From positions 800,001-864,000 of the forward strand of contig CBDCDS010000003.1 in NCBI GenBank assembly GCA_965215365.1: 64,000 nucleotides of DNA, written 5' to 3'. Positions 1-15,487 of the stretch are shown in pieces (the first letter of the stretch is position 1; every line of letters starts with the position of its first letter). The notes under the pieces were generated by a model. That model was not told where the DNA came from, did no database searches, and saw only the letters and a list, made by a program, of their open reading frames with translations. This DNA comes from Gammaproteobacteria bacterium. Lineage in GTDB: Bacteria; Pseudomonadota; Gammaproteobacteria; Eutrophobiales; Eutrophobiaceae. The position numbers and the translations under genes were made by a program.

Positions 1-206
1 ACCCGGTTTACGGCACGCTGGAAGAGGGCGGCCACGACCCGCGCCAGCCGGGCTTGCCGGTTAAGGTCATCAAGGGCGGCTCCTACCTGTGCGCGGAGAA
101 TTACTGCCGGCGTTACCGTCCTGCGGCCAGACATGCACAGGAAGCCACCTTAGGGGCTGCGCACATCGGCTTTCGAACTGTTAAAAACGCAGACAATTCC
201 CGATAA
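1..206 (+). CDS. C-terminal fragment of formylglycine-generating enzyme (FGE/SUMF1) family protein, partial at window edge
   Basis: Frame from nt 3 reads ...VKVIKGGSYLCAENYCRRYRPAARHAQEATLGAAHIGFRTVK..., matching the FGE-sulfatase C-terminal KGGS-x-LC-x3-C-x-RYR and HIGFR motifs; TAA at 204-206. Confidence 0.88.
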   Translation, partial: PVYGTLEEGGHDPRQPGLPVKVIKGGSYLCAENYCRRYRPAARHAQEATLGAAHIGFRTVKNADNSR

Positions 207-213
207 TCGCGGG

Positions 214-1524
214 TTAACCCGGCTCCAACTGTGGCGCGCGTAGCAGGTAAATGGCGACACAGGCCAGCAGCAGGGGCACTGCGAACACGATAAAATTGAC
301 GCTGGTGGAATAGCCCATATTGATCAATACGCCGCCCAGGTAGGGACCCATAATGGCGCCGGTGCGGCCGGCGCCGATGCTCCAGCCGACGCCGGTGGTG
401 CGGATTGCCGTGGGATACAGGCGCGCCGCCGAGATATAAAAACCCACAAACCCGCCCAATACACAAAAACCGAGCACGAACGCCAACGCCAGCAACAGGC
501 CCACCTGTGCCGGCGCAAACCCGAATGCCACCATGGAAATAATACCGCCGATAAAAAAGACGATGATCAACGGCCGCACTCCCAGTCGGTCGGACAAATA
601 CCCCAGGATGGCGCCGCCTAAGAAAGCTCCGAAATTCAACGCGGTACCGATGTAAATACCCTTGTCCACCGCCAGACCCGCATCAACGGTAATCTTGGGC
701 ACCCAACTGAACAGGAAATACAGAGTCAGGAACGCCATAAAAAAACCGCACCATAACAGCAGGGTCCAGTTTCTGTACTCGGGGGTCAACAGGCGCTTGA
801 CGGACGGTTTTGCGGCGGCGGCCAGGGTCTCCGGCAGCTCCCGCAACAGCGGCCAGCCCATACGGACCAGTATCCGGTTCATCTTATCCAGCGCCCCCGC
901 CGGGCGCCTGGAAGAAAGGAACTCCAGGGATTCCGGCAGGAACAACCAGGTGAGGATAACTCCGGCCAGCGACAGCAGGCCGCCACAATAAAATACCGCC
1001 GACCACCCATGAGACTGGATTAACCAGACCGCAACAAAGCCGCCGACCGTGGCGCCTAACGGGTAGCCCACCTGCATAAAGCCCACCGCTAAGTTGCGCT
1101 TCCTGGCCGGGGTGTATTCCGCCACCAGGCTGGTGAGGCTGGCCAGAATGCTGCCGATGCCAAGGCCGGTGATCATCCTCATAATAATCATCTGGGTGGC
1201 ATTGGTCGTCAGGCCGGTCAACGCCATGCTGAAGGCAATGGTAGTCAGCGACAACAGAATCATCGCCCGCCGCCCGATCACGTCCGTATAAGGGGCGATA
1301 AACGCTGCGCCCAAAGTCATGCCCACCAGTCCGGCGCTGAAAATGATGCCCAGCATGTACGGCGTCAGTTGCCATTCCTGAGAGATAGTGGGCGCGGTGA
1401 AAGCAATGGCCAGTACGTCAAAGCCGTCCAGCATGTTCAGGGCGAAGCATATCAGCACCACCCGCAGTTGCAGGCCACTGACGGGGCGCTCATCAATAAG
1501 CTGACCGATGGTTGTTGCAGACAT
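214..1524 (-). CDS. MFS transporter, aromatic acid:H+ symporter (PcaK/BenK-like)
   Basis: 436 aa, about 12 hydrophobic segments, LDGFD motif in TM1, D-x-IGRR loop motif, YPTAIRTTGVGW. Confidence 0.88.
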   Translation of the reverse strand: MSATTIGQLIDERPVSGLQLRVVLICFALNMLDGFDVLAIAFTAPTISQEWQLTPYMLGIIFSAGLVGMTLGAAFIAPYTDVIGRRAMILLSLTTIAFSMALTGLTTNATQMIIMRMITGLGIGSILASLTSLVAEYTPARKRNLAVGFMQVGYPLGATVGGFVAVWLIQSHGWSAVFYCGGLLSLAGVILTWLFLPESLEFLSSRRPAGALDKMNRILVRMGWPLLRELPETLAAAAKPSVKRLLTPEYRNWTLLLWCGFFMAFLTLYFLFSWVPKITVDAGLAVDKGIYIGTALNFGAFLGGAILGYLSDRLGVRPLIIVFFIGGIISMVAFGFAPAQVGLLLALAFVLGFCVLGGFVGFYISAARLYPTAIRTTGVGWSIGAGRTGAIMGPYLGGVLINMGYSTSVNFIVFAVPLLLACVAIYLLRAPQLEPG

Positions 1525-1529
1525 GGTAT

Positions 1530-1562
1530 TATGGTAACTCTAATTTTTAGAGGCACCCTTAT
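1530..1562. repeat. Short palindromic REP/MITE-end-like repeat (family A)
   Basis: tatggtaactctaatttttagaggcaccctta; similar copies at 12753-12782 and, inverted, at 29605-29636. Confidence 0.6.
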
Positions 1563-1574
1563 TACTTTATTTCT

Positions 1575-1601
1575 TCATTCCTGTGCAAGCAGGAATCCAG
1601 T
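1575..1601. repeat. dRS3/RPE-like palindromic repeat
   Basis: tcattcctgtgcaagcaggaatccagt; inverted relative at 7746-7773. Confidence 0.6.
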
Positions 1602-1636
1602 GGAAAAACGTCCCGAAGGGACTCCGTACAGGTAGA

Positions 1637-2173
1637 ATGTTGCGTATGATCAGAACGTTCGAGGGTATCACACCTGTTATAGCTGCATCCACTTATATTG
1701 ACGAGCTGGCCGTGGTGATCGGCAACGTCAGTATCGGCGAGGATTCCTCGGTCTGGCCGGCGGCCGTCATTCGCGGGGATGTCAACACCATCACCATCGG
1801 CAGCCGCACCAGCATTCAGGACGGCTCGGTGCTGCACGTCAATCATGACGATGCAGACAACCCCGGCGGCGACCCGCTGCATGTCGGCAGCAACGTTACC
1901 GTAGGCCATAAGGTTATGCTGCACGGCTGCACCATCCACGATCGCTGTCTGATCGGCATGTCTTCGACCATTCTGGACAAGGCCGTAATTGAATCCAATA
2001 CCATGCTCGGCGCCGGCAGTCTGGTGGCGCCGGGCAAGGTGCTGGCAAGCGGTTATCTCTATGTCGGCACGCCGGCGCGCCAGATACGCAAATTAACCGA
2101 CGCAGAACTGGCTTACCTGGACCTCTCTGCGGAACATTATGTCAGGATAAAAGCCAGACACATGGAAACCTGA
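1637..2173 (+). CDS. Gamma carbonic anhydrase family protein (YrdA-like)
   Basis: Hexapeptide repeats, IRGDVN-x-I-x-IG-x-RTSIQDGSVLH and VGH-x-VMLHGC motifs; start probably 1637 or 1646 rather than 1583. Confidence 0.9.
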   Translation: MLRMIRTFEGITPVIAASTYIDELAVVIGNVSIGEDSSVWPAAVIRGDVNTITIGSRTSIQDGSVLHVNHDDADNPGGDPLHVGSNVTVGHKVMLHGCTIHDRCLIGMSSTILDKAVIESNTMLGAGSLVAPGKVLASGYLYVGTPARQIRKLTDAELAYLDLSAEHYVRIKARHMET

Positions 2174-2213
2174 CCTACACTGACGCCCCACTGAGACACT
2201 CTTTGATATTGCC

Positions 2214-3581
2214 ATGAACCTTGCCGAACGTAAACTTATTGACTTGCAGTCTTATATCGCCTTGCTGGAACAGCACAACCACTTGGTACGTGTAAAAAGT
2301 GAGGTGGACCCCGTGTTCGAACTGGCCGGTATCGCCAAACAATTTGAGGGCGGCAAGGCGCTGCTGTTCGAAAATGTCAAGGGCAGTGACTTCCCGGCGC
2401 TGACCGGGTTGTACTGGAACCGTAATTTCATGGCGAAGTTTTTTCAGACTACCAGCGTCAGGCTGCCCTTCGTGCTGGCTGATGATATCCGGGCCTGGCG
2501 CAAGCACCCCATTGAACCCGTGATAGTACAACAAGGGCCGGCCAATGAGGTGGTTGAGACCGATCCTGACTTGCATACCCTGCCAATTCCCCACCACGCC
2601 GAAGGCGACGGCGGGCGCTACCTGACTTCTAGCGTGGTCATCGCCAAGGACCCGGACACGGGAGTGCGCAACCTGTCCATTCACCGCATGATGGTCACCG
2701 GCAAAAACCGCTGCACCCTGTTACTGGAAGAACTGGGCCACCTGATGGACTACTTCAAACGGGCCGAAGCCAGGGGGCAAGCGCTGGAGCTCACCGTCAA
2801 CAACGGCGCCGATTATGCCCTGACCATGGCCGCAGCATCACCCGCCTCCGCTGCGCCCATGGACTTGGATGAGATCGGCATCGCCTGTCAGATGCACGGC
2901 GCGCCGGTGCGCTTGATTGAAGCCCAAACCGTGGCCGTAGAGGCCTGGGCCGACGCGCAGTTCGTCATAGAAGGGAGAATACTCCCCAATGTAAGAGAGC
3001 CGGAAGGCCCCTACGCCGAGGTCACCGGCTACTACGCCGCCATGGCTCCACGCTGGGTGTTTGAGGTGACCGCCATCACCCGGCGGCGGGAACCGATCTT
3101 CCATTCCATCCTGTCCGGCAAGGAGGTGTATAACGCCTATGGCCTCAGCGCCGGCGCCGGCGCGTTCGACAAGATCCATAGTCTGGTGCCGGAGGTGACC
3201 GCGGTGCACTTCTCCGACGGCAGTGTGCCCTACCATCTGGTCGTGCAGATAGACAAGAAACACGAAGGCAGCCAGCGCAACGCCATCATGGCCGCGTTTG
3301 TCTCCCTGGCGTTCGTAAAAACTGTCACCGTGGTGGACACGGATGTGGATATCTACAGCCTCGCCGATGTGGACTGGGCCGTGCAGACTCGCTGCCGCTT
3401 CGATAAGGACCTGCTGCCGATACCCGACGGCATCGGCCATCGCCTCAACCCCATGGTGGAAGACGACAAATGGACGCGCCTGGGCATTGACGCCACTGTG
3501 CCGTTGCCGCGGCAGGACAAGTACCACCGAGCCACCATGTGCGCGGTGAACCTGGACGATTTTGATATGGAAGGGGCGTGA
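2214..3581 (+). CDS. UbiD family (prFMN-dependent) decarboxylase
   Basis: 455 aa; EGPYAEVTGYY, RNLSIHRM, VVDTDVDI and LGIDAT motifs. Confidence 0.9.
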   Translation: MNLAERKLIDLQSYIALLEQHNHLVRVKSEVDPVFELAGIAKQFEGGKALLFENVKGSDFPALTGLYWNRNFMAKFFQTTSVRLPFVLADDIRAWRKHPIEPVIVQQGPANEVVETDPDLHTLPIPHHAEGDGGRYLTSSVVIAKDPDTGVRNLSIHRMMVTGKNRCTLLLEELGHLMDYFKRAEARGQALELTVNNGADYALTMAAASPASAAPMDLDEIGIACQMHGAPVRLIEAQTVAVEAWADAQFVIEGRILPNVREPEGPYAEVTGYYAAMAPRWVFEVTAITRRREPIFHSILSGKEVYNAYGLSAGAGAFDKIHSLVPEVTAVHFSDGSVPYHLVVQIDKKHEGSQRNAIMAAFVSLAFVKTVTVVDTDVDIYSLADVDWAVQTRCRFDKDLLPIPDGIGHRLNPMVEDDKWTRLGIDATVPLPRQDKYHRATMCAVNLDDFDMEGA

Positions 3582-3707
3582 GATTTGAACTGCGATACGG
3601 TTGCAATACGTCGCGTAGGCCGCCATGTCATCTAGCTCCGGGAAGCTTCGCGAATTCATGCGAGTTGAGGAGCTCGAACTCGATAATTGGGTCAGTGAAT
3701 AAAAGAA

Positions 3708-4976
3708 ATGATTGCTAGGGGTGTTTTCGTTGTTGTTCTTTTGGTTGTCAATGGCGCTCAGGGTCATCCCGGGCGAACCGATGCGGACGGTTGTCACGCC
3801 GGCGCTGAGTCCTATCACTGTCATGATGAAATTATTGAATCCGGTGGTGGAAATATGAATATGTTTGCCGATGCTTTGGTCGATCCTGTTACACTGGTTG
3901 TTGCTTTTTTCATTGTAGTTTTGTTCGTTATCGGGTTGTTTTGGCAGCCGTTGCGAGAATCTGCGCCTGGGTTGCTGACCTCGTTGGGTATATTTGGCAC
4001 CTTCTTGGGAACGTTTATAGCCCTGTCTGGCTTTGATCCGTCCAGTGATATGAGCGATAGCGTCAATAATTTGCTTGGTGGGATGAAAATTGCTTTCGCT
4101 ACCAGTTTGCTCGGGATATTGGCCTCGATTGTTTTTAAGGTAATTGCTTCATTTCGGTTCAAGGAAGATGAACTGACTGAGAGTGAAGCGGTGTATCCGA
4201 TGGAAACGGTGCGTTTGCTCAACGAGATTAAGGAACATCTGGCGGTGACAAATTCAGGGCAACTGGAGTCGATTCGCAAGGCGTTGGTGGGGGATGAAAC
4301 CGAATACACCTTGTTGGGTCAGCATGCGCATGAACTTAAATGGCTTGAAAGCATAGAAGGGATGATGGCAAATACGCGGGATCTAATCGGTCAGGAAGGT
4401 GATCGGGGGGTACATAATCTGATTTTTGAATTGGCTGAGATGCGGTGGGCTTTAATTGGCGTTGAGCGAAGCAGTAAAAATTCGGATGAAGATGCTGGCT
4501 ACAATATTTATGACGTGTTGGAAAAGTTGGTTAAGAGTCAAAGTGAGTTGCTGGAAAAAACCGATACCCGGTTAGATAATCAAAGTAAGTTTATTGATAA
4601 TCAGGGTAAGTTGGTTGAGTCATTGACTGAACTCAGGCGGTGGCTTATTGAAAGCCAGCATCAATACACCGATGCGTTAGATAAAATTGCTTTGCAGTCT
4701 AATCAAGAGGATTCTGTTGACACCCGAGTTAAGTCCGTCGATCTTTTGAATGAAATCAGGCGGGTTAATTTGTTGTTGTCTAAATTTGACGCTAAAAAAA
4801 TTAATTCTTTAGTTGAGTCGGTTGATAAACTTATCCATCTTCAAAGTTCAGCTCATCAGCCGAAGAAAGGTGGTGCGACGTTAGAGGATATGCGGAATAT
4901 TATCAAAGAGCAATTGGCGCAAGTGGGTCAAACAACAGGTAATAAACAGAACGGCGGGAATGAAAAAAAAGACTGA
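3708..4976 (+). CDS. zorA: Zorya ZorA-like membrane protein (MotA/TolQ/ExbB channel with long helical tail) with N-terminal signal peptide and YHYH-like motif
   Basis: APGLLTSLGIFGTFLG...GMKIAFATSLLG TM core typical of ZorA, followed by about 270 aa of helical/coiled-coil tail; directly upstream of a ZorB-like gene; AT-richer than flanks. An alternative start lies near 3854 (MNMF). Confidence 0.78.
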   Translation: MIARGVFVVVLLVVNGAQGHPGRTDADGCHAGAESYHCHDEIIESGGGNMNMFADALVDPVTLVVAFFIVVLFVIGLFWQPLRESAPGLLTSLGIFGTFLGTFIALSGFDPSSDMSDSVNNLLGGMKIAFATSLLGILASIVFKVIASFRFKEDELTESEAVYPMETVRLLNEIKEHLAVTNSGQLESIRKALVGDETEYTLLGQHAHELKWLESIEGMMANTRDLIGQEGDRGVHNLIFELAEMRWALIGVERSSKNSDEDAGYNIYDVLEKLVKSQSELLEKTDTRLDNQSKFIDNQGKLVESLTELRRWLIESQHQYTDALDKIALQSNQEDSVDTRVKSVDLLNEIRRVNLLLSKFDAKKINSLVESVDKLIHLQSSAHQPKKGGATLEDMRNIIKEQLAQVGQTTGNKQNGGNEKKD

Positions 4977-5622
4977 TGAGCAATGGGCGCCGGTGTCGGA
5001 TTTAATGGCCGTCCTAATGTTAATTTTCATGTTTATATCGTTGTTGACAGTGCGGCATGTGATCGATGAGCGAGAAATCAATGAGTTGGAATGTAATAAG
5101 ATTTATGATTCTTTGGTGGCTGAATTCGATCAGGATTTTGAAAAATGGGATATTGCTTTGTTAGACGACCTGACGATTCGTTTTAATAACCCGGAATTGC
5201 TGTTCAAATCGAATGAAAGTCGTATCAGCCCCCGTTTTGCAATCATTCTACAGGACTTTTTCCCGCGTTATCTGGCGGTTATCCTGCAAGATAAATACCG
5301 CTCTGATATTCGTAAAATACGGATAGAGGGTCATACGTCGTCGGAATGGAAGGACGCAGTGAATGAAAAAGATGCTTATTTTTTGAATATGCAACTTTCA
5401 CAAGCTCGTACCTGGAATATCCTGCGCTACATTATGACATTGCCGACCAGTGTGTATTATTTTGATTGGGCTAAAAAATATGTCAGTGCAGACGGGATGT
5501 CATCGAGTGATCCGATTTTAACCAGTGATGGGATTGAAAATAAAGAACGTTCGCGGCGGGTTGATTTTCGTCTTATTACCACATCGTGCCGGAGGGCCGG
5601 AGTCTATGAGCAATCTATCTGA
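4960..5622 (+). CDS. zorB: Zorya ZorB-like OmpA/MotB family protein
   Basis: W-x-PVSDLMAVLMLIF TM with conserved Asp; FFPRYL, IRIEGHTSSEW, YFLNMQLSQAR and SRRVDF motifs as in type II ZorB; overlaps zorA by 17 nt. Confidence 0.85.
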   Translation: MKKKTDEQWAPVSDLMAVLMLIFMFISLLTVRHVIDEREINELECNKIYDSLVAEFDQDFEKWDIALLDDLTIRFNNPELLFKSNESRISPRFAIILQDFFPRYLAVILQDKYRSDIRKIRIEGHTSSEWKDAVNEKDAYFLNMQLSQARTWNILRYIMTLPTSVYYFDWAKKYVSADGMSSSDPILTSDGIENKERSRRVDFRLITTSCRRAGVYEQSI

Positions 5623-6226
5623 TAATTCTAATGAAGGGCTGTCTGTTATGCTGCCTTATCAGCTTATTATTGTGCCGGTCTTGCTTGTTGCTATCCTGCC
5701 AATGCCCTACGGTTATTACACGCTAGTCAGATTGATATGTTGCGCCCTGTTTGTCGATTTAACGGTTCGGCTTTTGGTTAATACTGATAATTCTAAATTG
5801 GGTGGTTGGAGTTTTCTTTGGTTTTTGACGGCGTTTTGTGCAATTTTATACAATCCCTTTATTCCGGTTCATTTGACCAAAGAAATCTGGACGGTGACCA
5901 ACCTTGTCTCTTTGGGTATTGGTGGGGGTGCGGTTTATCTGTTAAGTCGGTTGTCCAAGCCAAAGAAAAAAACCGGAAAAGGAAAAGAACAGTATGCCAC
6001 CGATAAGTTGAAAAAAGCCGATGGTAATTCAATGGCAAAGCAGAAATCAGAGTTAGTGAAAAAGGGGGCGGTTAAGGCACAGCCGGATGTTGAAAACGGC
6101 GAGAAACAGAGCAAAATTAAACAGTGGGCGGCGAGGGCTAATCCGGGGGCTAGATCGGATTACGGGCAATATAGAAAGGACGGGCCGAGGGCTAAGACCA
6201 AGCAGGCTAAGCAACGCCCTTTTTAG
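5606..6226 (+). CDS. DUF6804-like small membrane protein with Lys-rich C-terminal tail
   Basis: AILPMPYGYYTLVR and AILYNPFIPVHL-x-K-x-IW motifs; about 4 TM segments; start overlaps zorB 3' end. Confidence 0.7.
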   Translation: MSNLSDNSNEGLSVMLPYQLIIVPVLLVAILPMPYGYYTLVRLICCALFVDLTVRLLVNTDNSKLGGWSFLWFLTAFCAILYNPFIPVHLTKEIWTVTNLVSLGIGGGAVYLLSRLSKPKKKTGKGKEQYATDKLKKADGNSMAKQKSELVKKGAVKAQPDVENGEKQSKIKQWAARANPGARSDYGQYRKDGPRAKTKQAKQRPF

Positions 6227-6249
6227 CCAAAGACGCATGGCATTAGCTT

Positions 6250-6780
6250 TTGTTGAGAGAATCAGATTTGGACAAAAGTACTGATAATGAAACTTCGACC
6301 GATCGTCCCATTGTATATATGGAGACGACAGTGGTGAGCTACCTGACCGCCAGGCCGAGTCGCGATGTGGTCATAGCAGGACATCAGCAATCAACCCGGG
6401 AATGGTGGGAAGACAGACAAAGCGATTTCAGGGTTGTTGCATCACCACTTGTATTGCAAGAGGCAAGTAGAGGAGACAATCAGGCAGCGCAATCCAGGCT
6501 GGATATTTTAAGGATTGTGGAGTTATTGGAGATCAATGATGACGCAACGACCTTGGCGCGTGAGTTGATAGAAAGCGGAATAATTCCTGAAACTTCGCTT
6601 GATGACGCTTTACATGTCGCTATCGCTGCCGTTAATGGATGTAACTATCTGGCTACTTGGAACTACCGTCATCTGGTCAGCGCTGGGGTGCGGGCGCGAA
6701 TCGAGACATTTTGTCGAGACAAAGGCTATGAAGCGGTGATAATCTGCACACCAGAGGACCTTTTGGAGGAAGCAACATGA
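6250..6780 (+). CDS. PIN-domain (VapC-like) toxin/nuclease
   Basis: VYMETTVVSYL...DALHVAIA...YLATWNYRHL...ICTPEDL, the PIN acidic motif pattern. Confidence 0.85.
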   Translation: MLRESDLDKSTDNETSTDRPIVYMETTVVSYLTARPSRDVVIAGHQQSTREWWEDRQSDFRVVASPLVLQEASRGDNQAAQSRLDILRIVELLEINDDATTLARELIESGIIPETSLDDALHVAIAAVNGCNYLATWNYRHLVSAGVRARIETFCRDKGYEAVIICTPEDLLEEAT

Positions 6781-6944
6781 AGAACGACCCTATTGTGGAA
6801 GAAGTACGTAGAATCAGAGATGAACATGCGGCAAGATTCAAATACGATTTGGACTTGATAGTGAAAGACCTCAAAGAGCAGGAACGGGCAAGCGGCCGGA
6901 CGTATATCAGGCTGCCACCGCGTCGTATTAAACCGAAATCATGA
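6777..6944 (+). CDS. Small (55 aa) partner of the PIN protein, putative antitoxin
   Basis: Not in the ORF track; MKNDPIVEEVRRIRDEHAARFKYDLDLIVKDLKEQE..., ATGA overlap with the PIN stop and GGAGGA RBS. Confidence 0.75.
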   Translation: MKNDPIVEEVRRIRDEHAARFKYDLDLIVKDLKEQERASGRTYIRLPPRRIKPKS

Positions 6945-6995
6945 AGGAATAGGGCGTTTGTCAGATCGGGCGCCTTGAAAATCAATCATCGAAGT

Positions 6996-7709
6996 TTAGT
7001 CTGCGGATTTATCCTGCTCAATCTTTTTCTTCAACTCCTCCATTTCCTCGTCCACCTTGTGCAGGTGGTCGAGCAGGGCGTCGAGGGTGTTTTGTACCGG
7101 GTCGGGCATGTCTTTGCTGCCGCCGTAGGCGTCGAAGCCGATTTTTCTGGCCATGGCGGCGCGCTGGGCTTTTTTCAATTCCTCCTCGGCGCCGGACTCC
7201 CGAGCCATGATGCGGCCGGGGATGCCGACTACGGTGGCGTGGTCGGGGACATCCTTGATAACCACTGCGTTAGAGCCAATCCTGGCGTTGGCACCTAGGG
7301 TGATGGGGCCTAAGACCTTGGCGCCGGCGCCGATGATGACGCCGTTTTTCAGGGTCGGGTGGCGTTTGCCTTTCTGCCAGGTGGTGCCGCCTAAGGTGAC
7401 ACCGTGGTAGATGGAGCAGTCATCGCCGATCTCCGAAGTCTCACCGATGACGATGCCCATGCCGTGGTCGATAAACAGGCGGCGGCCGATGCCGGCGCCG
7501 GGGTGAATCTCCACACCGGTGAGAAAGCGCGACAGGTGCGAGCTGAGGCGCGCAAGCAGATAGAGTTTCTTGTTCCACAGCCAGTGGTTCACGCGATGCA
7601 GCAGGATCGCATGCAGGCCGGGGCAGGTGAGCAGGGTTTCCAGCGCGCTGCGGGCGGCGGGGTCGCGCTCGAACACTACTTGTATGTCTTCTTTGAGGGT
7701 GTTGAACAT
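6996..7709 (-). CDS. cysE: Serine O-acetyltransferase
   Basis: [15 protein letters not shown][13 protein letters not shown], KRHPTL and VVGIPGR motifs. Confidence 0.96.
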
Positions 7710-7745
7710 GGTGTTGCGGTCTTGTCCCTTCGGGACCTGTATTTC

Positions 7746-7773
7746 ACTGGATTCCCGCGTGCGCAGGAATGAC
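7746..7773. repeat. dRS3/RPE-like palindromic repeat between valS and cysE
   Basis: actggattcccgcgtgcgcaggaatgac, a hairpin-forming inverted relative of 1575-1601. Confidence 0.6.
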
Positions 7774-7789
7774 GGGGTTGCGCCTGGAC

Positions 7790-10708
7790 TTACCGTACCA
7801 ACTTGCTTATGCGCTCAACCTCTGCAACTAGTCTGGTAGTGGTAGCTTCCACCTCCGCAAGTTTATCACGTTCCTTCGCTACCACTTGGGCGGGTGCCTT
7901 GTCGATAAAGTTCCGGTTTTGCAGTTTGCCGCTCAGTCGTTGCCGTTCGGCCTCAAGCCGGGCCAGTTGTTTGCCCAGTTTTTCCAGCTCCTCGGCGGGG
8001 TCGATGAGGTCGGCCAAGGGCACCATGAGGGTCATGGAACCGGCTTCGGCGGTGATTGCATCGTCGGGCACCTTAGCCAAACGTTCAACACCGGTGACGC
8101 GGGTCAGCGACCGGATTGGTCTGAGATTGGCCCGCAGCCAGGCCTGTTCCTGTTCGCTGCCGCGGTTGACCTTCAGGTCCAGCGGCTTTCCCGGCGCGAT
8201 ATCACGTTCGGCGCGGATACGCCGCACCCCCAGGATGAATGACTTCAGCCATTCCACCTCAGCCAGCGTCTCAGCATGACTCTCGACCACCTGCTGCCAG
8301 TCCGCCGACGTGGAATAATCCGCCGTCACCGCCTGTGTCGAGTCCACCGCTATGGAAACATTTCCAACTACCCCGCTGGCATCATTTCCTTGCGCGTTAG
8401 AAACGGGGCCGATTATGCCGGCAATCTCCGCGGCAACAGGGTAAGACTGCAACATCACGGTCTCCCCGCCCCGCCCCAGCAACGGCACTACCTTTTGCCA
8501 CAACTCCTCGGTGATAAAAGGCATGAACGGGTGTAACAAGCGCAGCAACAGTTCCAGGTTATGCACCAGGGTGTGCAGCACGCCACGTTTCTGTGCCGCC
8601 GTTGCTTGCGGGTCGTTCAGCACGGGTTTCGACAGCTCCACATACCAATCGCAATACTCATCCCAGGTGAACTCGTATAAGGCCTGGGCTGCCAGATCGA
8701 AGCGATACCCGGCCAGGCTGTGTTCAACCTGTGCCAGGGCCTGCCCCAGGCGGATGCTGATCCAGCATTCGGCGCTACCGTACTGCACGGTACCGGTATT
8801 GACTTCCAAACCCTGCTGCTCGACACTTAGCAGCACATACCGGGTGGCGTTCCAGAGCTTGTTGCAGAAGTTGCGATAACCCTGGATGCGCCCCGTGTCA
8901 AAACGGATGTCGCGCCCTTGGGTGGCCAGCTGGGCGAAGGTAAAACGCAAGGCATCGGCACCGAACGCGGGAATGCCCTGCGGGAATTGCTTGCGCGTCG
9001 CTTGCTCAATGCCGGCCTGCAACTGCGGCTGCATCAGGTTGGCTGTCTGTTTGGATACCAGCGCCTCGAGCTCTATACCGTCGATCAGGTCCAGCGGGTC
9101 CAGGACATTGCCCTTGGACTTGGACATCTTGCGGCCTTGCGAGTCGCGCACCAGGCCGGTCACATAGACCTCCCGGAACGGTACGTCGCCCATGAACTTC
9201 AGTCCCATCATGATCATCCTGGCAACCCAGAAAAAGATGATGTCAAAACCGGTTACCAACACACTGGTGGGGTAAAAGCGTTCCAGCTCACTGGTCTGTT
9301 GCGGCCAGCCCAGGGTGGAAAAAGGCCATAACGCCGAGGAAAACCAGGTGTCCAGCACATCCGGGTCACGGGTCAGCGCCACGGCTTCGGGCAGCCGGTA
9401 TTTGCGGCGCGCCTGGGCTTCGTCCCTGGCTACGTAGATATTGCCGTCGGCATCGTACCAGGCCGGGATGCGGTGCCCCCACCAGAGCTGGCGCGAGATG
9501 CACCAGTCGTTGATGTTGCGCATCCACTCGAAGTAGGTTTTCGACCAGTTCTCCGGCACAAAACGGATGTCCCCGCGTGCCACTGCGGCAATAGCCGGGT
9601 CGGCCAGCGGCTGAATCCTTACGTACCACTGGTCGGTGAGATAAGGCTCGATGATGGCGCCGGAGCGATCACCGCGCGGTGCCATCAGGGTGTGCTCTTC
9701 GATTTTCTCCAGCAAGCCCAGCGCAGTCAGGTCTTCAATGATCCGGTGGCGCGCCTGATAGCGATCCAGGCCCTGGTAAGCGGCGGGAGCGTTGTCGTTG
9801 AGCGCCGCGTCAATAGTGAAGATGTTCAGCAACGGCAGGTTGTGACGCTGCCCCATGTCGTAATCATTGAAATCGTGCGCCGGCGTGATTTTGACGCAGC
9901 CGCTGCCGAAGGCCGGGTCCACATGGTCATCGGCAATCACCGGGATGCTGCGGCCGGTCAGGGGCAGCTCTACCGTTGCCCCTACCAGTTTGCGGTAGCG
10001 CGCGTCATCGGGATGCACCGCCACCGCAGCATCACCCAGCATCGTTTCAGGACGTGTCGTCGCCACCACCAGCGCGCCGTGACCATCCGTGCGCGGGTAG
10101 CGAATATGCCAGAGGTGGCTTTTTTCCTCCTCCGCCAGCACCTCTAAGTCGGAAACGGCCGTGTGCAGCACCGGGTCCCAGTTCACCAGGCGCTTGCCGC
10201 GATAGATCAACCCCTCGTCATAGAGGCGGATAAATACCTCCTGCACGGCTTGCGAGAGACCCTCGTCCATGGTAAAACGTTCCCGGCTCCAGTCCATGGA
10301 CGCGCCCAGGCGCCGCGACTGGCGGCTGATGGTATTGCCGGAATGGGCTTTCCAGTCCCACACCGCCTGCATGAACTGCTCCCGCCCCAGATCATGCCGG
10401 GATTGGCCCTTAGCCTCCAACTGCCGCTCCACCACCATCTGCGTGGCGATGCCGGCATGGTCGGTTCCGCACTGCCACAAGGTGTCATCGCCCCGCATGC
10501 GTCGGTAGCGGATCAATATGTCCATCAGCGTCTGCTGGAAGGCATGCCCCATGTGCAGGCTGCCGGTGACGTTGGGCGGCGGCAGGGCGATGCTGTAGGA
10601 GGCGCGCCCGTCTCGGGGCCCGCCGCGGGGATGAAAATACCCCTGTCGCTCCCACTGTTCATACCAGCGGGCTTCGATGGTTTGGGGATTGTAGGTTTTG
10701 TCCAACAT
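7790..10708 (-). CDS. valS: Valine--tRNA ligase
   Basis: [25 protein letters not shown] and KMSKS motifs, C-terminal coiled coil; start placed at MLDKTYNP (10708). Confidence 0.97.
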
Positions 10709-10736
10709 TACCGCAGCTCCCGGATCAGGCTCCGAA

Positions 10737-11201
10737 TCAGGCACGAGCAGCCCCGATATTGTGGCTGTGCAGTTCCAGCCCTCGGTCACGGTACTCCTGG
10801 TAGCGCGCCCGCGCCTGCCGGCGCGCAGCCGGGTCGGACGGCACGACTTCGACAATGCGTTCATAGCCGTTCACAGCCGCCGGCACCGCGTCGCACAGGT
10901 TAATGAACACCCGCCGCGCCGGGGGGGTCTGTCCGGCCCAGCCGATGACGACCGGATAGTTGTCCAGGTCCTCGGCGGCATCTATGGCGGCATGTGGCAG
11001 GAAGCTGATATCCCGGAAAGTCCAAAGCAAGGTATCCAAGGTTTCGGCCTCCTCCCGGGATGCGGCGTGGATATAGACATCATACCCTCCCTGTCTGGCC
11101 TTCTCCACCAGCTGGCAGACGAAACGATGAGGCATCGTCTGCTCAGCAACGATATAAAAGTCCGCTCTGCTCACGCTAGCCGGCGCGCTGCCTGACGGCA
11201 C
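10737..11201 (-). CDS. holC: DNA polymerase III chi subunit
   Basis: DFY...LD-x-LLWTF-x3-FLPH...ARARY motifs; conserved pepA-holC-valS order. Confidence 0.92.
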
Positions 11202-11225
11202 TCTTTCCAGCGGATTTTGACATGC

Positions 11226-12725
11226 TCAGGTGTTTTTCTCACATTGCTGAATCAGGTATTCCACCAGCAAGGGCACGGGACGTCCGGTCGCACACTTGTT
11301 TTTGCCGCTGACCCAGGCGGTGCCGGCGATATCCAGGTGCGCCCAGTGGAATTTTCTGGCAAACTTGGACAGGAAACAGGCGGCGGTGATAGTGCCGGCC
11401 TCGCGCCCGCCGATGTTGGCCATGTCCGCGAACGGGCTGTCCAGCTGTTTCTCGTATTCCTCCCACAACGGCAGCTGCCAGGCCCGGTCGCCGGCGTTCA
11501 GCCCGGCCTGCAACAACTCTGCCGCCAGCGGTTCGTGGTTACTCATCAGGCCCGAAGCATGTTTGCCCAGGGCGACTATGCAGGCGCCGGTGAGCGTGGC
11601 AATGTCAACCACTGCGACCGGAGCAAAGCGCTCGCTGTAAGTCAGAGCATCGCACAATATCAGGCGGCCCTCCGCATCCGTATTCAGCACTTCCACAGTC
11701 TGGCCAGACATGCTGGTAAAAATGTCGCCAGGCTTGGTTGCAGTGCTGCTGGGCATATTCTCCACCGCCGGCGTCAGTCCCACCAGATTGATCGGGAGTT
11801 CCATCCCGGCGACGGCAGCCACCGCGCCAAACACCGAGGCGGCACCACACATGTCGAATTTCATCTCATCCATCGCCGCCGCGGGCTTGATCGATATGCC
11901 GCCGGTGTCAAAGGTCACACCTTTCCCTATCAGCGCCACCGGCTTGCTGTCATCCCCCGCGCCCTGGTAACGGAAGACGATCAATTTCCCCGGTTGCGCG
12001 CTGCCTTGGGATACCGACAGCAGGGAATGCATGCCCAGCTCCTTCATTTCCGCCTCATCCAGTACCTTTACGTCCACTGCGGGATAGGTCTTGCCCAACG
12101 CCAGCGCTTGTTCGGCGAGATGAGTCGGCGTGCAGGCGTTGGCCGGGCGATTGGCCAAGTCACGGGTCAGTTTCACGCCTGCGGCCAAGGCCATGCCGCG
12201 CGTCAGCGCGGTATGGCATTGCGCCAGCTCCCGGCGCGTGGGCACCACCAGGGTAATTTTACGCAGGCTTTTTTTGGGTTCATTTTTCTTGCTCTTGAAT
12301 TCATTGAAGCGGTAGAGTTCATGGTCGGCCCATTGCACCGCGTTTTGTATCTTCCAGGGGTAATCCCGCTCCTTGACCTCCAGTTCCGGCAAAAAACTCA
12401 TGGCTTCGGTGGCGCCGGTCTGTTGCAGTTGTTTGACGCCAGCAGTGATAATTTTCCGGTATTGCCGGTCATCGAGGTCAGCCTGCTTGCCGCAGCCGAG
12501 CAGCAACAGGCGTTCGGCGGCGCAGCCGGGCACCTTGTGCAAGAGCAGTGACTGGCCGATTTTTCCGTCCATATCGCCGTTGCGTAACAAGCCGGAGAGG
12601 AAGCCGGCACCCGCGTCGTCCAAAGCCTGGGCGGCGGGGGTTAATTTGCGGGATTCGTACACGCCGGCCAGTACGCAGGCACTACGCTGTTTTACGGGAC
12701 TGCCGCTCTTAATATTGTATTCCAT
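11226..12725 (-). CDS. pepA: Leucyl aminopeptidase
   Basis: GKGVTFDTGG, MKFDM, NTDAEGRL and HLDIAG motifs. Confidence 0.97.
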   Translation of the reverse strand: MEYNIKSGSPVKQRSACVLAGVYESRKLTPAAQALDDAGAGFLSGLLRNGDMDGKIGQSLLLHKVPGCAAERLLLLGCGKQADLDDRQYRKIITAGVKQLQQTGATEAMSFLPELEVKERDYPWKIQNAVQWADHELYRFNEFKSKKNEPKKSLRKITLVVPTRRELAQCHTALTRGMALAAGVKLTRDLANRPANACTPTHLAEQALALGKTYPAVDVKVLDEAEMKELGMHSLLSVSQGSAQPGKLIVFRYQGAGDDSKPVALIGKGVTFDTGGISIKPAAAMDEMKFDMCGAASVFGAVAAVAGMELPINLVGLTPAVENMPSSTATKPGDIFTSMSGQTVEVLNTDAEGRLILCDALTYSERFAPVAVVDIATLTGACIVALGKHASGLMSNHEPLAAELLQAGLNAGDRAWQLPLWEEYEKQLDSPFADMANIGGREAGTITAACFLSKFARKFHWAHLDIAGTAWVSGKNKCATGRPVPLLVEYLIQQCEKNT

Positions 12726-12752
12726 GATATTCTTTCACTGGTTATGATGAGA

Positions 12753-12782
12753 ATAGTAACCTCTGATTTTTAGAGGCGCCTT
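12753..12782. repeat. Short palindromic repeat (family A) in the pepA/lptF divergent spacer
   Basis: atagtaacctctgatttttagaggcgcctt, similar to 1530-1562. Confidence 0.6.
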
Positions 12783-12840
12783 TGTCTCGGATTCTATCTG
12801 ATAACCGGCGTTAACACCAGCTATCCAATAATCCTATCTA

Positions 12841-13956
12841 ATGATCCTGCGCCGCTACATTCACAGAGAAATAGCTGAGAAACTCGGCTGGATCATCGGC
12901 CTGCTGGCGTTGATTATCATGAGTAATCGCTTTGTCAGGTATCTGGCAGATGCCGCCGCCGGGGTCTTTCCCGCCGACCTGGTGTTGCAGTCGCTGCTGA
13001 TGAAAATGCTGGCGACCTTGCCGAAGCTGATGCCCATTGCCATTTTTCTGGCGGTCCTGCTCGGCCTGTCCAGACTGGCGCGCGACCGGGAACTGACCGT
13101 GGTGTCGGCATCCGGCAGTGGCTATCGGGTACAACTGGTCGCGATCCTGCAGTTGTCCCTGCTGTTTTCCCTGATCGTGTTCGCTACCAGTTTTTATGTC
13201 GCGCCCTGGGCCGCGCAGAATACCGCGACCTTGCGCGCCCAGGCTGAAGTGGAAGCGGAGACCGCCGCTGTCGCGGCCGGCAAATTCAACGAAATGAGCA
13301 GGGGAGAGCAGGTCATATATATTGAACGTGCCTCAAGTGACAGGACGCGCATGGAGAACATTTTCCTGCAAGCCCGGCGCGACCAGCAAACCAGTGTGAT
13401 CAACTCACGTAGCGCCAGCTACCGAACTATTGATGACCTGGGCGGCAAGTTCCTGTTATTCGAACACGGACGGCGTTACACCAGCAGCCGCGACGCGCTG
13501 GACTACCAGATAACCCGCTACCGCACTTACGCGGTATTGGTTGAACAGAGCGATGCGCAACGCAACTATATCAAACTGGAGGCAGTGCCGACGGCAACTC
13601 TGCTCGGCTCAGACAACCCACAACACCAGGCTGAATTACAGTGGCGCCTGTCTTTTGTGATTGCCTCATTGTTGCTGCCCGTGCTGGCGTTGGCCCTGAG
13701 CCGTTATTCATTCAGCGAGCAGAAATACTTCGCGGCGTTCGTGGCCGTGCTGATCTACATTATCTACAGCAATCTACTGAGCATTGCGAAAACCATGTTA
13801 AAACGGGATGAGATACCGGCTTTCATCGGCCTCTGGTGGGTGCATCTGGCCTTGCTCGCATTGATTATCTGTGCCTTTGCGTGGCCGCGGCTGCGGCGGC
13901 GGCTGAAGCAGGGGACACCGCGGCCGCAGGCTGCCGGGCACGGCGCGACGGCATGA
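12841..13956 (+). CDS. lptF: LPS export ABC transporter permease LptF
   Basis: MILRRYI-x-RE, RL-x-RDREL and AELQWRLS motifs; divergent from pepA. Confidence 0.92.
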   Translation: MILRRYIHREIAEKLGWIIGLLALIIMSNRFVRYLADAAAGVFPADLVLQSLLMKMLATLPKLMPIAIFLAVLLGLSRLARDRELTVVSASGSGYRVQLVAILQLSLLFSLIVFATSFYVAPWAAQNTATLRAQAEVEAETAAVAAGKFNEMSRGEQVIYIERASSDRTRMENIFLQARRDQQTSVINSRSASYRTIDDLGGKFLLFEHGRRYTSSRDALDYQITRYRTYAVLVEQSDAQRNYIKLEAVPTATLLGSDNPQHQAELQWRLSFVIASLLLPVLALALSRYSFSEQKYFAAFVAVLIYIIYSNLLSIAKTMLKRDEIPAFIGLWWVHLALLALIICAFAWPRLRRRLKQGTPRPQAAGHGATA

Positions 13957-15131
13957 AGATCATACAACGCTATTTCATTGTCAACCTGGTCTGGCCGACC
14001 GCGCTGGCGCTGTTAGTGCTGGTTGGCATTTTTGCGTTTCTATCCTTAATCGACCAACTGGAAGACGCCGGGCAAGCAAATTTCGGCGCCTACGAAGCCG
14101 TTATTTACGTGCTGTTGACCTTGCCCCGGCTGGCTTATGAGATCATGCCTGTGGCAGCGATGATCGGGGGCATGGCCTGTCTGGCGCTGCTCACCCGCAA
14201 CCGCGAACTCGACATTATCAGGCTGGCCGGCGGCTCGGAATCTTCCGTCGCCTGGTTTCTTGGCAACGCAGCTCTGCTCATCATCGTATTTTATATCCTG
14301 CTCGGCGAGTTCGTGGTGCCCGCAACCGAAATAAAAGCCAGGTATCAACGTTCCATTGCCTTGCAGGAACAAATTGCCATGCAAACCCGGTACGGTTTCT
14401 GGGCCCGGGACGGCAACAGTTTCATCAATATCCGCAAGATACTGCCCGGCAACCGCGTCGAGGAAGTCTATATTTACGAATTCGATGAGGAGGCCCGGTT
14501 ACGCAGCAGTATCAGCGCCGAAAACGCCCGTTATAACGACGACCACTGGGTGCTGGAAGGTGTGGAAAGGACGATCATTGATAACGATGGAGTCAGCCTG
14601 GAACGACATGATCGCGCGGCCTGGGCATCCTGGATGGACGATGATTTAATCGACTTGATCATCATCAACCCCTTGTACATGTCGGTATGGAACCTCCGGG
14701 ACAGTATTCGGGCGCTGCAAGCCAATGCGCAGAGCACGGCTGTTTACGAACAGGCGCTCTATGGCAAGCTGACGCGCCCGTTTACCATCCTCGCCATGAT
14801 CCTGCTGTCTGCCCCGCTGGTTGCCGCACGCAGGCACGACGGCGGCCCCGGACAACAGGTCTTTACAGGCGCCCTGATCGGAGTGATCTTCTACTTTGTT
14901 AACTCCGCCGCCGGCCATATCGGCATCGTTTACGGGGCACACCCGCTTATCAGCGCGACCGCGCCCACCCTGCTGCTGTACCTGATATTGTTCAGGCTTT
15001 ACCGACGTAAACCAGCAGTGTCCCGGAGCCGCGGTCATGTAAGGCCCGACGCTCCTTATCGAACAAGCACCAAAGAAATCCGGCGCCCAATACAACCCAG
15101 GATACGCCGGCAAGAAAAAACCTTGCGCTGA
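13953..15131 (+). CDS. lptG: LPS export ABC transporter permease LptG
   Basis: MKIIQRY, GFWARDGNSFINI; ATGA overlap with lptF. Confidence 0.92.
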   Translation: MKIIQRYFIVNLVWPTALALLVLVGIFAFLSLIDQLEDAGQANFGAYEAVIYVLLTLPRLAYEIMPVAAMIGGMACLALLTRNRELDIIRLAGGSESSVAWFLGNAALLIIVFYILLGEFVVPATEIKARYQRSIALQEQIAMQTRYGFWARDGNSFINIRKILPGNRVEEVYIYEFDEEARLRSSISAENARYNDDHWVLEGVERTIIDNDGVSLERHDRAAWASWMDDDLIDLIIINPLYMSVWNLRDSIRALQANAQSTAVYEQALYGKLTRPFTILAMILLSAPLVAARRHDGGPGQQVFTGALIGVIFYFVNSAAGHIGIVYGAHPLISATAPTLLLYLILFRLYRRKPAVSRSRGHVRPDAPYRTSTKEIRRPIQPRIRRQEKTLR

Positions 15132-15423
15132 GGCTTTTCCAGTCCGGCACACGGCCATCCGCGCTGACCAGGTAGATACGCCAGGCGCGCATGCCCAGAG
15201 TTTGGCGCCCCGTTTTCCACTGCCAGACGAAATACAACCAGGCAATAACCAGCAGGTAGGCAGAATATAACGGGTGGCCGGCGCTGAAGGCTACACCGCC
15301 ACTCACGGTCAACGCGGCTAGGGTTGCAAAGAACAACACAGAAAACAACAGGCAGCAGTCATAAATAATAGCCGCCAGCCGGCGCGCCAAGCTGCAAGTG
15401 GCATGATGTTTGGAGTCAGACAT
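14992..15423 (-). CDS. RDD family membrane protein
   Basis: RRLAAIIYD, QTLGMRAW and LHDR-x-SGT motifs; usual neighbour of lptG. Confidence 0.88.
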   Translation of the reverse strand: MSDSKHHATCSLARRLAAIIYDCCLLFSVLFFATLAALTVSGGVAFSAGHPLYSAYLLVIAWLYFVWQWKTGRQTLGMRAWRIYLVSADGRVPDWKSLSARFFLAGVSWVVLGAGFLWCLFDKERRALHDRGSGTLLVYVGKA

Positions 15424-15487
15424 GCCAGGGAAAAGTATATTGACGACAAATATTGCCGACATTGCGCAGTGGAAGCACTGTCTGGTG

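Follow-up and report, generated by a model that had tools for sequence, protein, structure and literature searches.

A ZorE-less, remodelled type II ZorAB pair, probably kept by selection in a mosaic island of a gammaproteobacterium

We analysed a gene cluster in a 64,000-nucleotide (nt) stretch of a gammaproteobacterial genome, hereafter the window (G000:C3:800001-864000; the genome comprises 2.73 Mb in three contigs, is 97.56% complete and has a GC content of 0.579). The cluster consists of five co-oriented genes on the forward strand: a zorA-like gene, zorB, a gene for a DUF6804 membrane protein, a PIN-domain gene and p55, which encodes a 55-amino-acid (aa) protein. With a probability of about 0.6, we read the first two as a type II Zorya ZorAB pair that lacks the nickase ZorE, has been remodelled and has been kept by selection within a mosaic island; the pair was probably kept for some function. 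The locus is a reworked remnant, and a five-gene system is unsupported. The genes are as follows.

3708-4976, forward strand: zorA-like open reading frame (ORF), 422 aa; the likely true start at ATG 3855 gives 373 aa
4960-5622, forward strand: zorB, 220 aa, a type II ZorB (PDLC00641)
5606-6226, forward strand: DUF6804 gene, 206 aa (PF20619)
6250 (TTG) or 6319 (ATG) to 6780, forward strand: VapC-like PIN gene, 176 or 153 aa (PF01850)
6777-6944, forward strand: p55, partner of the PIN gene and candidate antitoxin, 55 aa, joined to the PIN gene by an ATGA overlap

Neighbouring genes overlap by 17 nt (zorA and zorB), by another 17 nt (zorB and the DUF6804 gene) and by 4 nt (PIN and p55).

Judged from its sequence, ZorB keeps all conserved features of a peptidoglycan-anchored, Asp-dependent stator subunit. 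It matches the ZorB2 model PDLC00641 over its full length (expectation value (E) 1.8e-74, 248 bits, model positions 10-226 of 238) and the solved ZorB chain 8vvi_A over residues 6-212 (E 6e-39), and is 39.8% identical to E. coli plasmid systems annotated as zorB2. An N-terminal membrane helix with Asp14 and an OmpA-like peptidoglycan-binding domain give it the architecture of a type II ZorB2. Across 44 homologs D14, N143, L146, R150, C45 and C210 are invariant, and N143, L146 and R150 make up the N-x2-L-x3-R peptidoglycan motif of ZorB. By position, the conserved residues would equate to those mutated in E. coli ZorB, Asp26 and also Tyr151, Asn152, Leu155 and Arg159 (PMC11946911).

Defence by type II Zorya depends on ZorE, a protein that ZorAB brings to the membrane when a phage infects (PMC11890865). 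We found no ZorE in this genome. PADLOC run on the five island proteins recognised ZorA and ZorB only; no ZorE model matched, and there was no ZorC, ZorD, ZorF or ZorG beside zorAB (ZorC, ZorF and ZorG were not searched genome-wide). This agrees with a preliminary description of the sequence, which had proposed a type II-like ZorB without ZorE, ZorC or ZorD beside it. That description had also allowed for a zorE elsewhere in the genome. The ZorE model PDLC00642 matched nothing genome-wide, tblastn with 11 third-gene proteins of related loci against the six-frame genome gave short chance matches only (best E 0.12), and a local ZorE profile built from the 11 third genes matched none of 38,260 six-frame genome segments. 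The ZorD model NF041790 had four generic genome matches far under its cut-off (best 105.6 versus 1500 bits), none near the locus. Without ZorE, this ZorAB would be unable to act in the way described for type II, where DNA is nicked by a ZorE that the ZorA tail has recruited.

Related loci indicate that the loss is derived. At E <= 1e-10, 2,689 proteins are related to this ZorB, with 54-60% identity in the closest ones beyond its own lineage; a single-ZorB search of genome contigs found one near-identical metagenome-assembled genome (MAG), L001, alone. In a class-level sample, 19 of 401 genomes had a ZorB-like match, and we examined 20 ZorB places outside the window's genome. At 12 of the 20, a co-oriented ORF starts no more than 50 nt from the zorB stop; ten of these tight third genes were scanned with PADLOC (L044 and L046 were left out) and nine matched a ZorE model, including that of the closest locus, L028 (54% identity). 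A further search, of 56 genomes around the order to which the L028 genome belongs, added the G404 locus, which has a ZorB of 58% identity and encodes a 421-aa ZorA, a 230-aa ZorB and a 278-aa ZorE (local profile E 3e-64), so that both closest relatives of known context carry ZorE third.

The same holds more widely. A 44-sequence ZorB alignment served to collect 80 metagenome and 10 viral loci, 10 of them too short downstream to judge. ZorE follows zorB in 61 of the 80 judged loci, as the next ORF in 50 and by six-frame search in 11 more, where ORF picking had failed in GC-rich DNA; the remaining loci have the N-terminal half of ZorE only (six) or no ZorE-like gene (13). We placed 120 ZorBs in a quick maximum-likelihood tree, where the protein of the window falls in a group of nine (SH-aLRT, the Shimodaira-Hasegawa-like approximate likelihood-ratio test, 85, below the starred level) with the ZorE-linked L028 and seven database homologs of unknown context (from P0002-P0031, 54-60% identity). 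As this group lies within a ZorE-rich clade, absence of ZorE is the derived condition.

Other type II pairs without ZorE exist. Nine of the 13 ZorE-less loci (L073, L089, L093, L098, L099, L103, L107, L109 and L120) form one ZorB clade (SH-aLRT 97), and in four of the nine a conserved protein of ~115 aa, which begins like a signal peptide, is encoded 130-220 nt downstream of zorB. Like the window, these loci keep a type II-like ZorAB without an HNH partner and have a lineage-specific small gene after zorB; their third genes, however, are unrelated to DUF6804, and their ZorBs are not close relatives of the window ZorB. Our locus stands out by having DUF6804 as the neighbour of ZorAB and by a ZorA tail that is an orphan.

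The survey gave further observations. The six loci with half a ZorE (L057, L063, L065, L092, L126 and L128; four identified by PADLOC and two by eye, two of the genes being cut by a contig end) have third genes of 127-185 aa without the HNH part and cluster in the ZorB tree. In L070, a 373-aa third gene (1514-2635) overlaps zorB by 4 nt; its first residues look ZorE-like by eye, and it matched no PADLOC model and no Pfam family above cut-off. In the viral contig L143, a ZorA2-like gene (6705-7448; PDLC00637, E 1.7e-26) follows zorB, an inverted order.

The zorA-like ORF is made up of two stretches:

3855-4976, forward strand: ZorA, with a MotA/ExbB-type three-helix membrane core and a divergent, predicted-helical cytoplasmic tail of 224 aa
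3708-3854, forward strand: in-frame extension of 49 codons that precedes the likely start of zorA and contains a YHYH-like Cys/His motif

The membrane core of ZorA is intact and of ZorA2 type. It scores 23.9 bits against PF01618 (cut-off 22.9), and six ZorA2 models match it with E values of 5e-26 to 1e-15, all confined to residues 58-205 of the long ORF; the best, PDLC00640 (E 5e-26, 89 bits), covers residues 59-205, the membrane part only. Similarly, the ZorA chains of the PDB entries 8qyh and 8vvi match residues 17-115 only (E 4e-9). In the predicted structure the core has a per-residue confidence (predicted local distance difference test, pLDDT) of 79-90, and the tail is helical at pLDDT 29-53. 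ZorA homologs carry the precomputed family label PF28082.

The tail, by contrast with the core, matches no ZorA2 tail profile. It is without the EQFGENFK and C-terminal LSxKFxxDY motifs, while an invariant Trp (W263) does align. By comparison, five of five ZorAs from loci with a tight third gene (which matches ZorE models in four, L044 being unscanned) reach 177-531 bits against ZorA2 models, with matches along almost the whole protein. A word-based search with the window ZorA turned up a single close relative, the intact 411-aa protein P0128 (91% identity; seen on 10 contigs), the next match being at E 5e-12 over 37% of the query, and a HMMER search with the tail alone against 1.84 billion representatives returned only P0128 at E <= 1e-10, plus two weak matches. 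Alignment coverage between the window ZorA and those of its two closest ZorB relatives is 0.49 and 0.31, compared with a median of 0.91 and a 5th percentile of 0.62 over 1,987 ordered, non-independent pairs of other loci with like ZorB identity.

Despite this loss of similarity the reading frame is intact. All 224 tail codons are open at 7.3% expected stops per codon (P ~4e-8; 0 of 20,000 shuffles), and the five other frames of the same stretch hold 8-37 stops. Because the frame lost all similarity yet stayed open, we take the changed tail to have been under selection. It has a net charge of -8.

The 49-codon extension probably lies outside ZorA proper. ATG 3855 is preceded by the better Shine-Dalgarno sequence (GGTGGTGGA), and none of 16 aligned ZorA homologs has an extension of this type. 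We considered the YHYH-like stretch as a periplasmic domain of ZorA and rejected it: its match to NF033223 (YHYH-like) reaches 26.3 bits, under the cut-off of 30, no aligned homolog has it, and its hydrophobic, signal-peptide-like part comes from a 33-nt insert (3712-3744) found in the window only and missing in relatives. The extension may be the relic of a small YHYH gene.

In place of zorE stands a gene for a DUF6804 protein (PF20619, 61.5 bits against a gathering score of 27, residues 20-102), and all nearest clusters of this protein in the Atlas are DUF6804. With the family it shares the MPYGYY and NP(F/I)IPV motifs and four membrane helices, modelled here at residues 5-30, 35-59, 66-81 and 92-117 (pLDDT 67-85) ahead of a low-confidence tail. 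It differs from other members, which are 104-129 aa long, stand alone in varied accessory contexts and have no basic tail; the tail of the window protein spans ~100 aa and contains 27 Lys and Arg versus 9 Asp and Glu, a net charge of +18. The preliminary picture of an MPYGYY protein with about four transmembrane helices and a basic tail, overlapping zorB, is thus borne out. Among 10 aligned homologs, only those of the window's lineage have the long tail, the end of which is unconserved even within the lineage because relatives carry 345 other letters for 6197-6265. The start codon, ATG 5606, sits 17 nt inside zorB with a GGAG upstream (GGAGGGCCGGAG), and the same start was called independently in an 88%-identical relative, P0122.

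A literature search on the family name found no function for DUF6804 in print, and a fold search of the model against the PDB gave nothing at E <= 0.001, with generic helical matches only. A complex prediction for ZorA, ZorB and DUF6804, with DUF6804 as the scored partner, returned 0.00 against a mark of 0.32, which is evidence neither way. On the Agrobacterium plasmid pAT (L151 6618-7799) and on a Loktanella plasmid (L152 6588-8096), a Fic-family gene lies ~2.4 kb downstream of DUF6804.

Close relatives of the island were compared for signs of selection. L001, a gammaproteobacterial MAG, is 92-98% identical across the island and has the same zorA-zorB-DUF6804-PIN-p55 order. In run X6 all five genes are intact on one 5,992-nt contig and in run X12 contigs tile the island stretch; both runs are labelled sponge metagenome. 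The zorA-zorB-DUF6804 block is contiguous in L001, X6 and X12. In run X13, positions 3805-6219 are uncovered and no contig runs across, so that presence or absence of the block there is not inferable. We computed ratios of non-synonymous to synonymous substitution (dN/dS) for the window and L001 only, with our own script for the Nei-Gojobori method (NG86); the counts are small. For zorB the ratio is 0.07 (31 synonymous and 9 non-synonymous differences), and for the DUF6804 gene 0.22 in the domain and 0.25 in the tail; indels in DUF6804 relatives are in-frame or compensated. The PIN gene has 10 synonymous and no non-synonymous differences, and p55 has a ratio of 0.05, with 0.10 in cysE for comparison. 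Synonymous divergence is uneven (zorB 0.27, zorA 0.07-0.09, DUF6804 0.13-0.16, PIN 0.10, cysE 0.36), which hints at recombination between strains inside the island.

The PIN gene and p55 make up a separate unit. The PIN protein is a marginal pass for PF01850 (24.6 bits, cut-off 23.6), had no match at E <= 1 among PDB sequences, and shares 46% identity with a protein that is annotated as a VapC-family toxin and encoded on the Thiodictyon plasmid NZ_CP020372. There the toxin gene is followed by an unannotated overlapping ORF with 53% identity to p55 over 34 aa (E 1e-9), and a Leptospira plasmid shows the same layout, a PIN homolog and then an overlapping ORF of 63 aa. A small overlapping ORF is therefore conserved downstream of PIN, as expected of a cognate partner. 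Because the pair recurs on these two plasmids, neither of which has ZorAB near it, we regard PIN and p55 as an independent module. Like the VapC-family modules of NZ_CP020372 and NZ_CP092989, they combine a PIN protein of ~153-160 aa with a downstream ORF of 55-68 aa that overlaps it, and they differ from classical vapBC in their reverse gene order and in a partner, p55, that matches no family. A 4,644-nt contig of run X13 matches 6221-7797 with 20 differences, and its 335 letters upstream of 6221 are unlike the window. Most likely the pair stabilises the island or acts as an abortive-infection module of its own. Inspection by eye of this PIN subfamily (window 6319-6780, L145 and L146) shows Glu in place of Asp at the first acidic position in two of the three (METT, LETS), and Trp-Asn at the site that the last acidic residue occupies in many VapCs.

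The five genes lie in an island with these further features:

3582-6975, no strand: AT-rich island, delimited by GC profile, GC content at third codon positions (GC3) and Pfam-identified flank genes
2214-3581, forward strand: ubiD-like gene, upstream flank of the island (Pfam)
6996-7709, reverse strand: cysE-like gene, downstream flank of the island (Pfam)
3584-3707, forward strand: vapB and vapC (PIN) relics, from blastn against L001 and L001 ORF translations

GC content across 3.5-7.0 kb is 0.39-0.50, compared with 0.58-0.64 in the flanks, and GC3 of the five genes is 0.45-0.49, compared with 0.75-0.80 in the ubiD-like gene, the cysE-like gene and valS. Composition and ORF positions both confirm the AT-richer, co-oriented and tightly packed five-gene run of the preliminary description, and the island is horizontally acquired, foreign DNA. 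The same-family genomes G161 and G326 keep valS-cysE and have different genes beyond cysE and no ZorB match. By blastn, the relics correspond to a portion of the L001 vapB (3584-3632) and to the 3' end of the L001 vapC (3651-3707); the L001 pair is intact (L001 3674-4368) and lies upstream together with an IS21-like pair, and ~480 nt are missing from the window. Around the island borders, we found no tRNA in 1-16000 and no Rfam family in 1-12000, and flanking repeats were uninformative. No terminator-like site lies between zorA codon 90 and cysE, and scanning for promoters and terminators brought out nothing distinctive (10 promoter-like sites versus 5.4 expected).

A number of observations weigh against a ZorAB pair kept by selection and a DUF6804 partner for it. 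All the evidence for retained function comes from a single lineage, whose members (the window, L001, P0128/P0122 and runs X6, X10 and X12) are ~91-96% identical. In L001, zorA is split by an IS256/Mutator-type transposase gene (PF00872, E 9e-70, 417 aa; L001 5193-6594), whose flanks overlap by 8 nt (window 4553-4560) in what looks like a target duplication, and in run X10, too, the contigs break at 4553/4560; the motor is therefore dispensable in part of the population. The dN/dS of zorA is 0.56 in its 5' part and 0.32 in its 3' part, one of the two copies being the split one. The window ZorB sits on an end branch of 0.96, compared with 0.2-0.37 for its neighbours, a length that fits relaxed constraint as well as adaptation. 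Scores stay under the NCBIfam equivalog cut-offs for both ZorB2 (NF041787, 159 versus 400 bits) and ZorA2 (56 versus 700 bits), and the 11 third genes behind the local ZorE profile include L034, without a PADLOC match, and the unscanned L044. As for DUF6804, its profile matched at none of the 90 metagenome and viral ZorB loci, and the window protein matches no ZorE model, N-terminal models included. The family occurs in 4 of the 401 class-sample genomes, and its other holders (G227, G301 and G330) have no ZorB match and encode proteins of 104-113 aa in unrelated contexts; on Agrobacterium pAT and the Loktanella plasmid it stands alone (~105-115 aa) with no OmpA or MotA within 4 kb.

Much of this would also be expected of a decaying relic, in which zorE was lost by deletion or replacement, zorAB are non-functional leftovers, DUF6804 and PIN-p55 are passengers, and the overlap of zorB with the DUF6804 gene is an accident of the junction. 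Besides the single lineage, the disrupted zorA, its dN/dS and the long ZorB branch, this account is favoured by the upstream vapBC relic, by the variable junctions (at 6196-6266 and 6221 between runs), by a ZorA tail without the conserved ZorA2 motifs, and by the finding that type II ZorAB alone gives no defence (PMC11890865). The preliminary description had itself named, as what would refute its proposal, a decayed type II system with zorE third in the closest homologs and an arrangement that never recurs, and this is what we observed: the closest ZorBs of known context, in G404 and L028, have zorE third, and the arrangement recurs in 0 of 90 metagenome and viral loci and 0 of 20 genome loci. 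Decay by itself is too simple, however. The zorB ratio of 0.07 over 31 synonymous changes, the invariant ZorB residues, all of them kept, the 224 open codons in a tail of no detectable similarity, the in-frame or compensated indels of DUF6804, the intact copies on several contigs, and the nine-locus clade, which shows that ZorE-less pairs can persist, all argue against a pair of mere leftovers, and we consider the relic less likely.

A second account, which takes the kept-function reading to its furthest, makes ZorAB and DUF6804 one defence machine and a new Zorya subtype, with the polybasic-tailed membrane protein replacing ZorE as effector. In its favour, the DUF6804 gene is translationally coupled to zorB and has a private Shine-Dalgarno sequence, the two rare families (ZorB-like and DUF6804) occur together in this genome only among the 401 class-sample genomes, the long basic tail is unique to this copy among 10 aligned homologs, and in the same lineage the ZorA tail was remodelled and zorA-zorB-DUF6804 stay contiguous. 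The arrangement does not recur independently, however: none of the 110 other ZorB loci shows it, nor does any of the 5 other DUF6804 contexts. At the 20 ZorB loci from genomes, tblastn gave no match to the DUF6804, PIN or p55 protein, and the recurring DUF6804 or PIN partners for which the preliminary description had suggested surveying ZorB neighbourhoods are absent from both sets of loci. In addition, DUF6804 has no similarity to ZorE, the end of its tail differs even from that of the 88%-identical relative, and the functional side is argued from sequence. A new subtype is accordingly doubtful. Of the membrane effector and PIN RNase that had been put forward for it, the PIN protein drops out as part of a stand-alone module, and DUF6804 stays a candidate in a single lineage.

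That all five genes form one system, with the PIN RNase as an effector controlled by ZorAB and p55 as its inhibitor, is very improbable: the genes share a strand, have short gaps and no terminator-like site between them, but two unrelated plasmids carry PIN with its small ORF as a conserved module that stands alone, relatives have 345 other letters at the DUF6804-PIN junction, the X13 contig is unlike the window before 6221, and none of the 90 metagenome and viral ZorB loci gave a tblastn match to PIN or p55, the matches there being to ZorA and ZorB only.

For the ZorE-less pair kept by selection, the following course of events can be proposed. The island would be a mosaic of at least three modules: the zorA-zorB pair, the DUF6804 gene in the former ZorE slot, and PIN and p55 as a toxin-antitoxin-like pair. 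The zorA-zorB pair would have descended from a type II Zorya and lost the ZorE nickase, and ZorA and ZorB may still assemble as a ZorA5B2-type (5:2), proton-driven complex anchored in the cell wall. After the loss, the ZorA tail would have been remodelled under selection for another output; in type I, all ZorA tail truncations abolish defence (PMC11946911). The leading candidate for that output would be the co-translated DUF6804 protein, a four-helix membrane partner whose +18 tail, predicted by the positive-inside rule to face the cytoplasm, could touch the ZorA tail of net charge -8 or nucleic acid. The PIN pair would work on its own and serve the island in addiction or abortive infection. 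Nested within the kept-function reading, we propose only tentatively that DUF6804 is a new ZorAB partner, and with slightly more reserve still the full sequence in which a type II ZorAB rebuilt its tail and took on a membrane DUF6804 with a polybasic tail as its output.

The literature, in the parts covered here, names three Zorya subtypes, and our locus works like and descends from one of them, type II. With type II Zorya (E. coli plasmids, PDB 8VVI) it shares the architecture and conserved residues of ZorB, the MotA/ExbB-like three-helix core and the length of ZorA (373 aa versus 378 aa in 8vvi_F), the zorA/zorB overlap and a third gene that overlaps the end of zorB. It differs in that ZorE is neither at the locus nor found in the genome, the ZorA tail has no ZorA2 tail sequence, the third gene encodes an integral membrane DUF6804 protein and not a soluble HNH nickase, and the proteins stay under the NCBIfam equivalog cut-offs. 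Because neither ZorE nor tail homology was found, we do not file the locus as a member of type II Zorya.

If the pair has been kept by selection, a ZorAB core can persist after its nuclease is gone and be wired to something else, which would bear on the modularity of the motor and on what the ZorA tail recognises. Published work treats ZorAB as useless without a soluble effector (ZorAB by itself is not sufficient; PMC8565338), with which a kept ZorE-less pair contrasts; the main text of PMC11890865, supplements not covered, makes no mention of orphan or standalone ZorAB. If the locus is a relic only, it warns against equating tight packing in defence islands with a system, the PIN pair being demonstrably separate. 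In either case zorA, zorB and the DUF6804 gene offer a clonable three-gene test case for the DUF6804 family. Should DUF6804 prove to be the output, this would be the first Zorya-type system with a membrane effector and the first function for DUF6804, and, together with the other ZorE-less clades, it would mean that the ZorAB core is an envelope sensor that can be reused, each lineage adding a third gene of a different kind.

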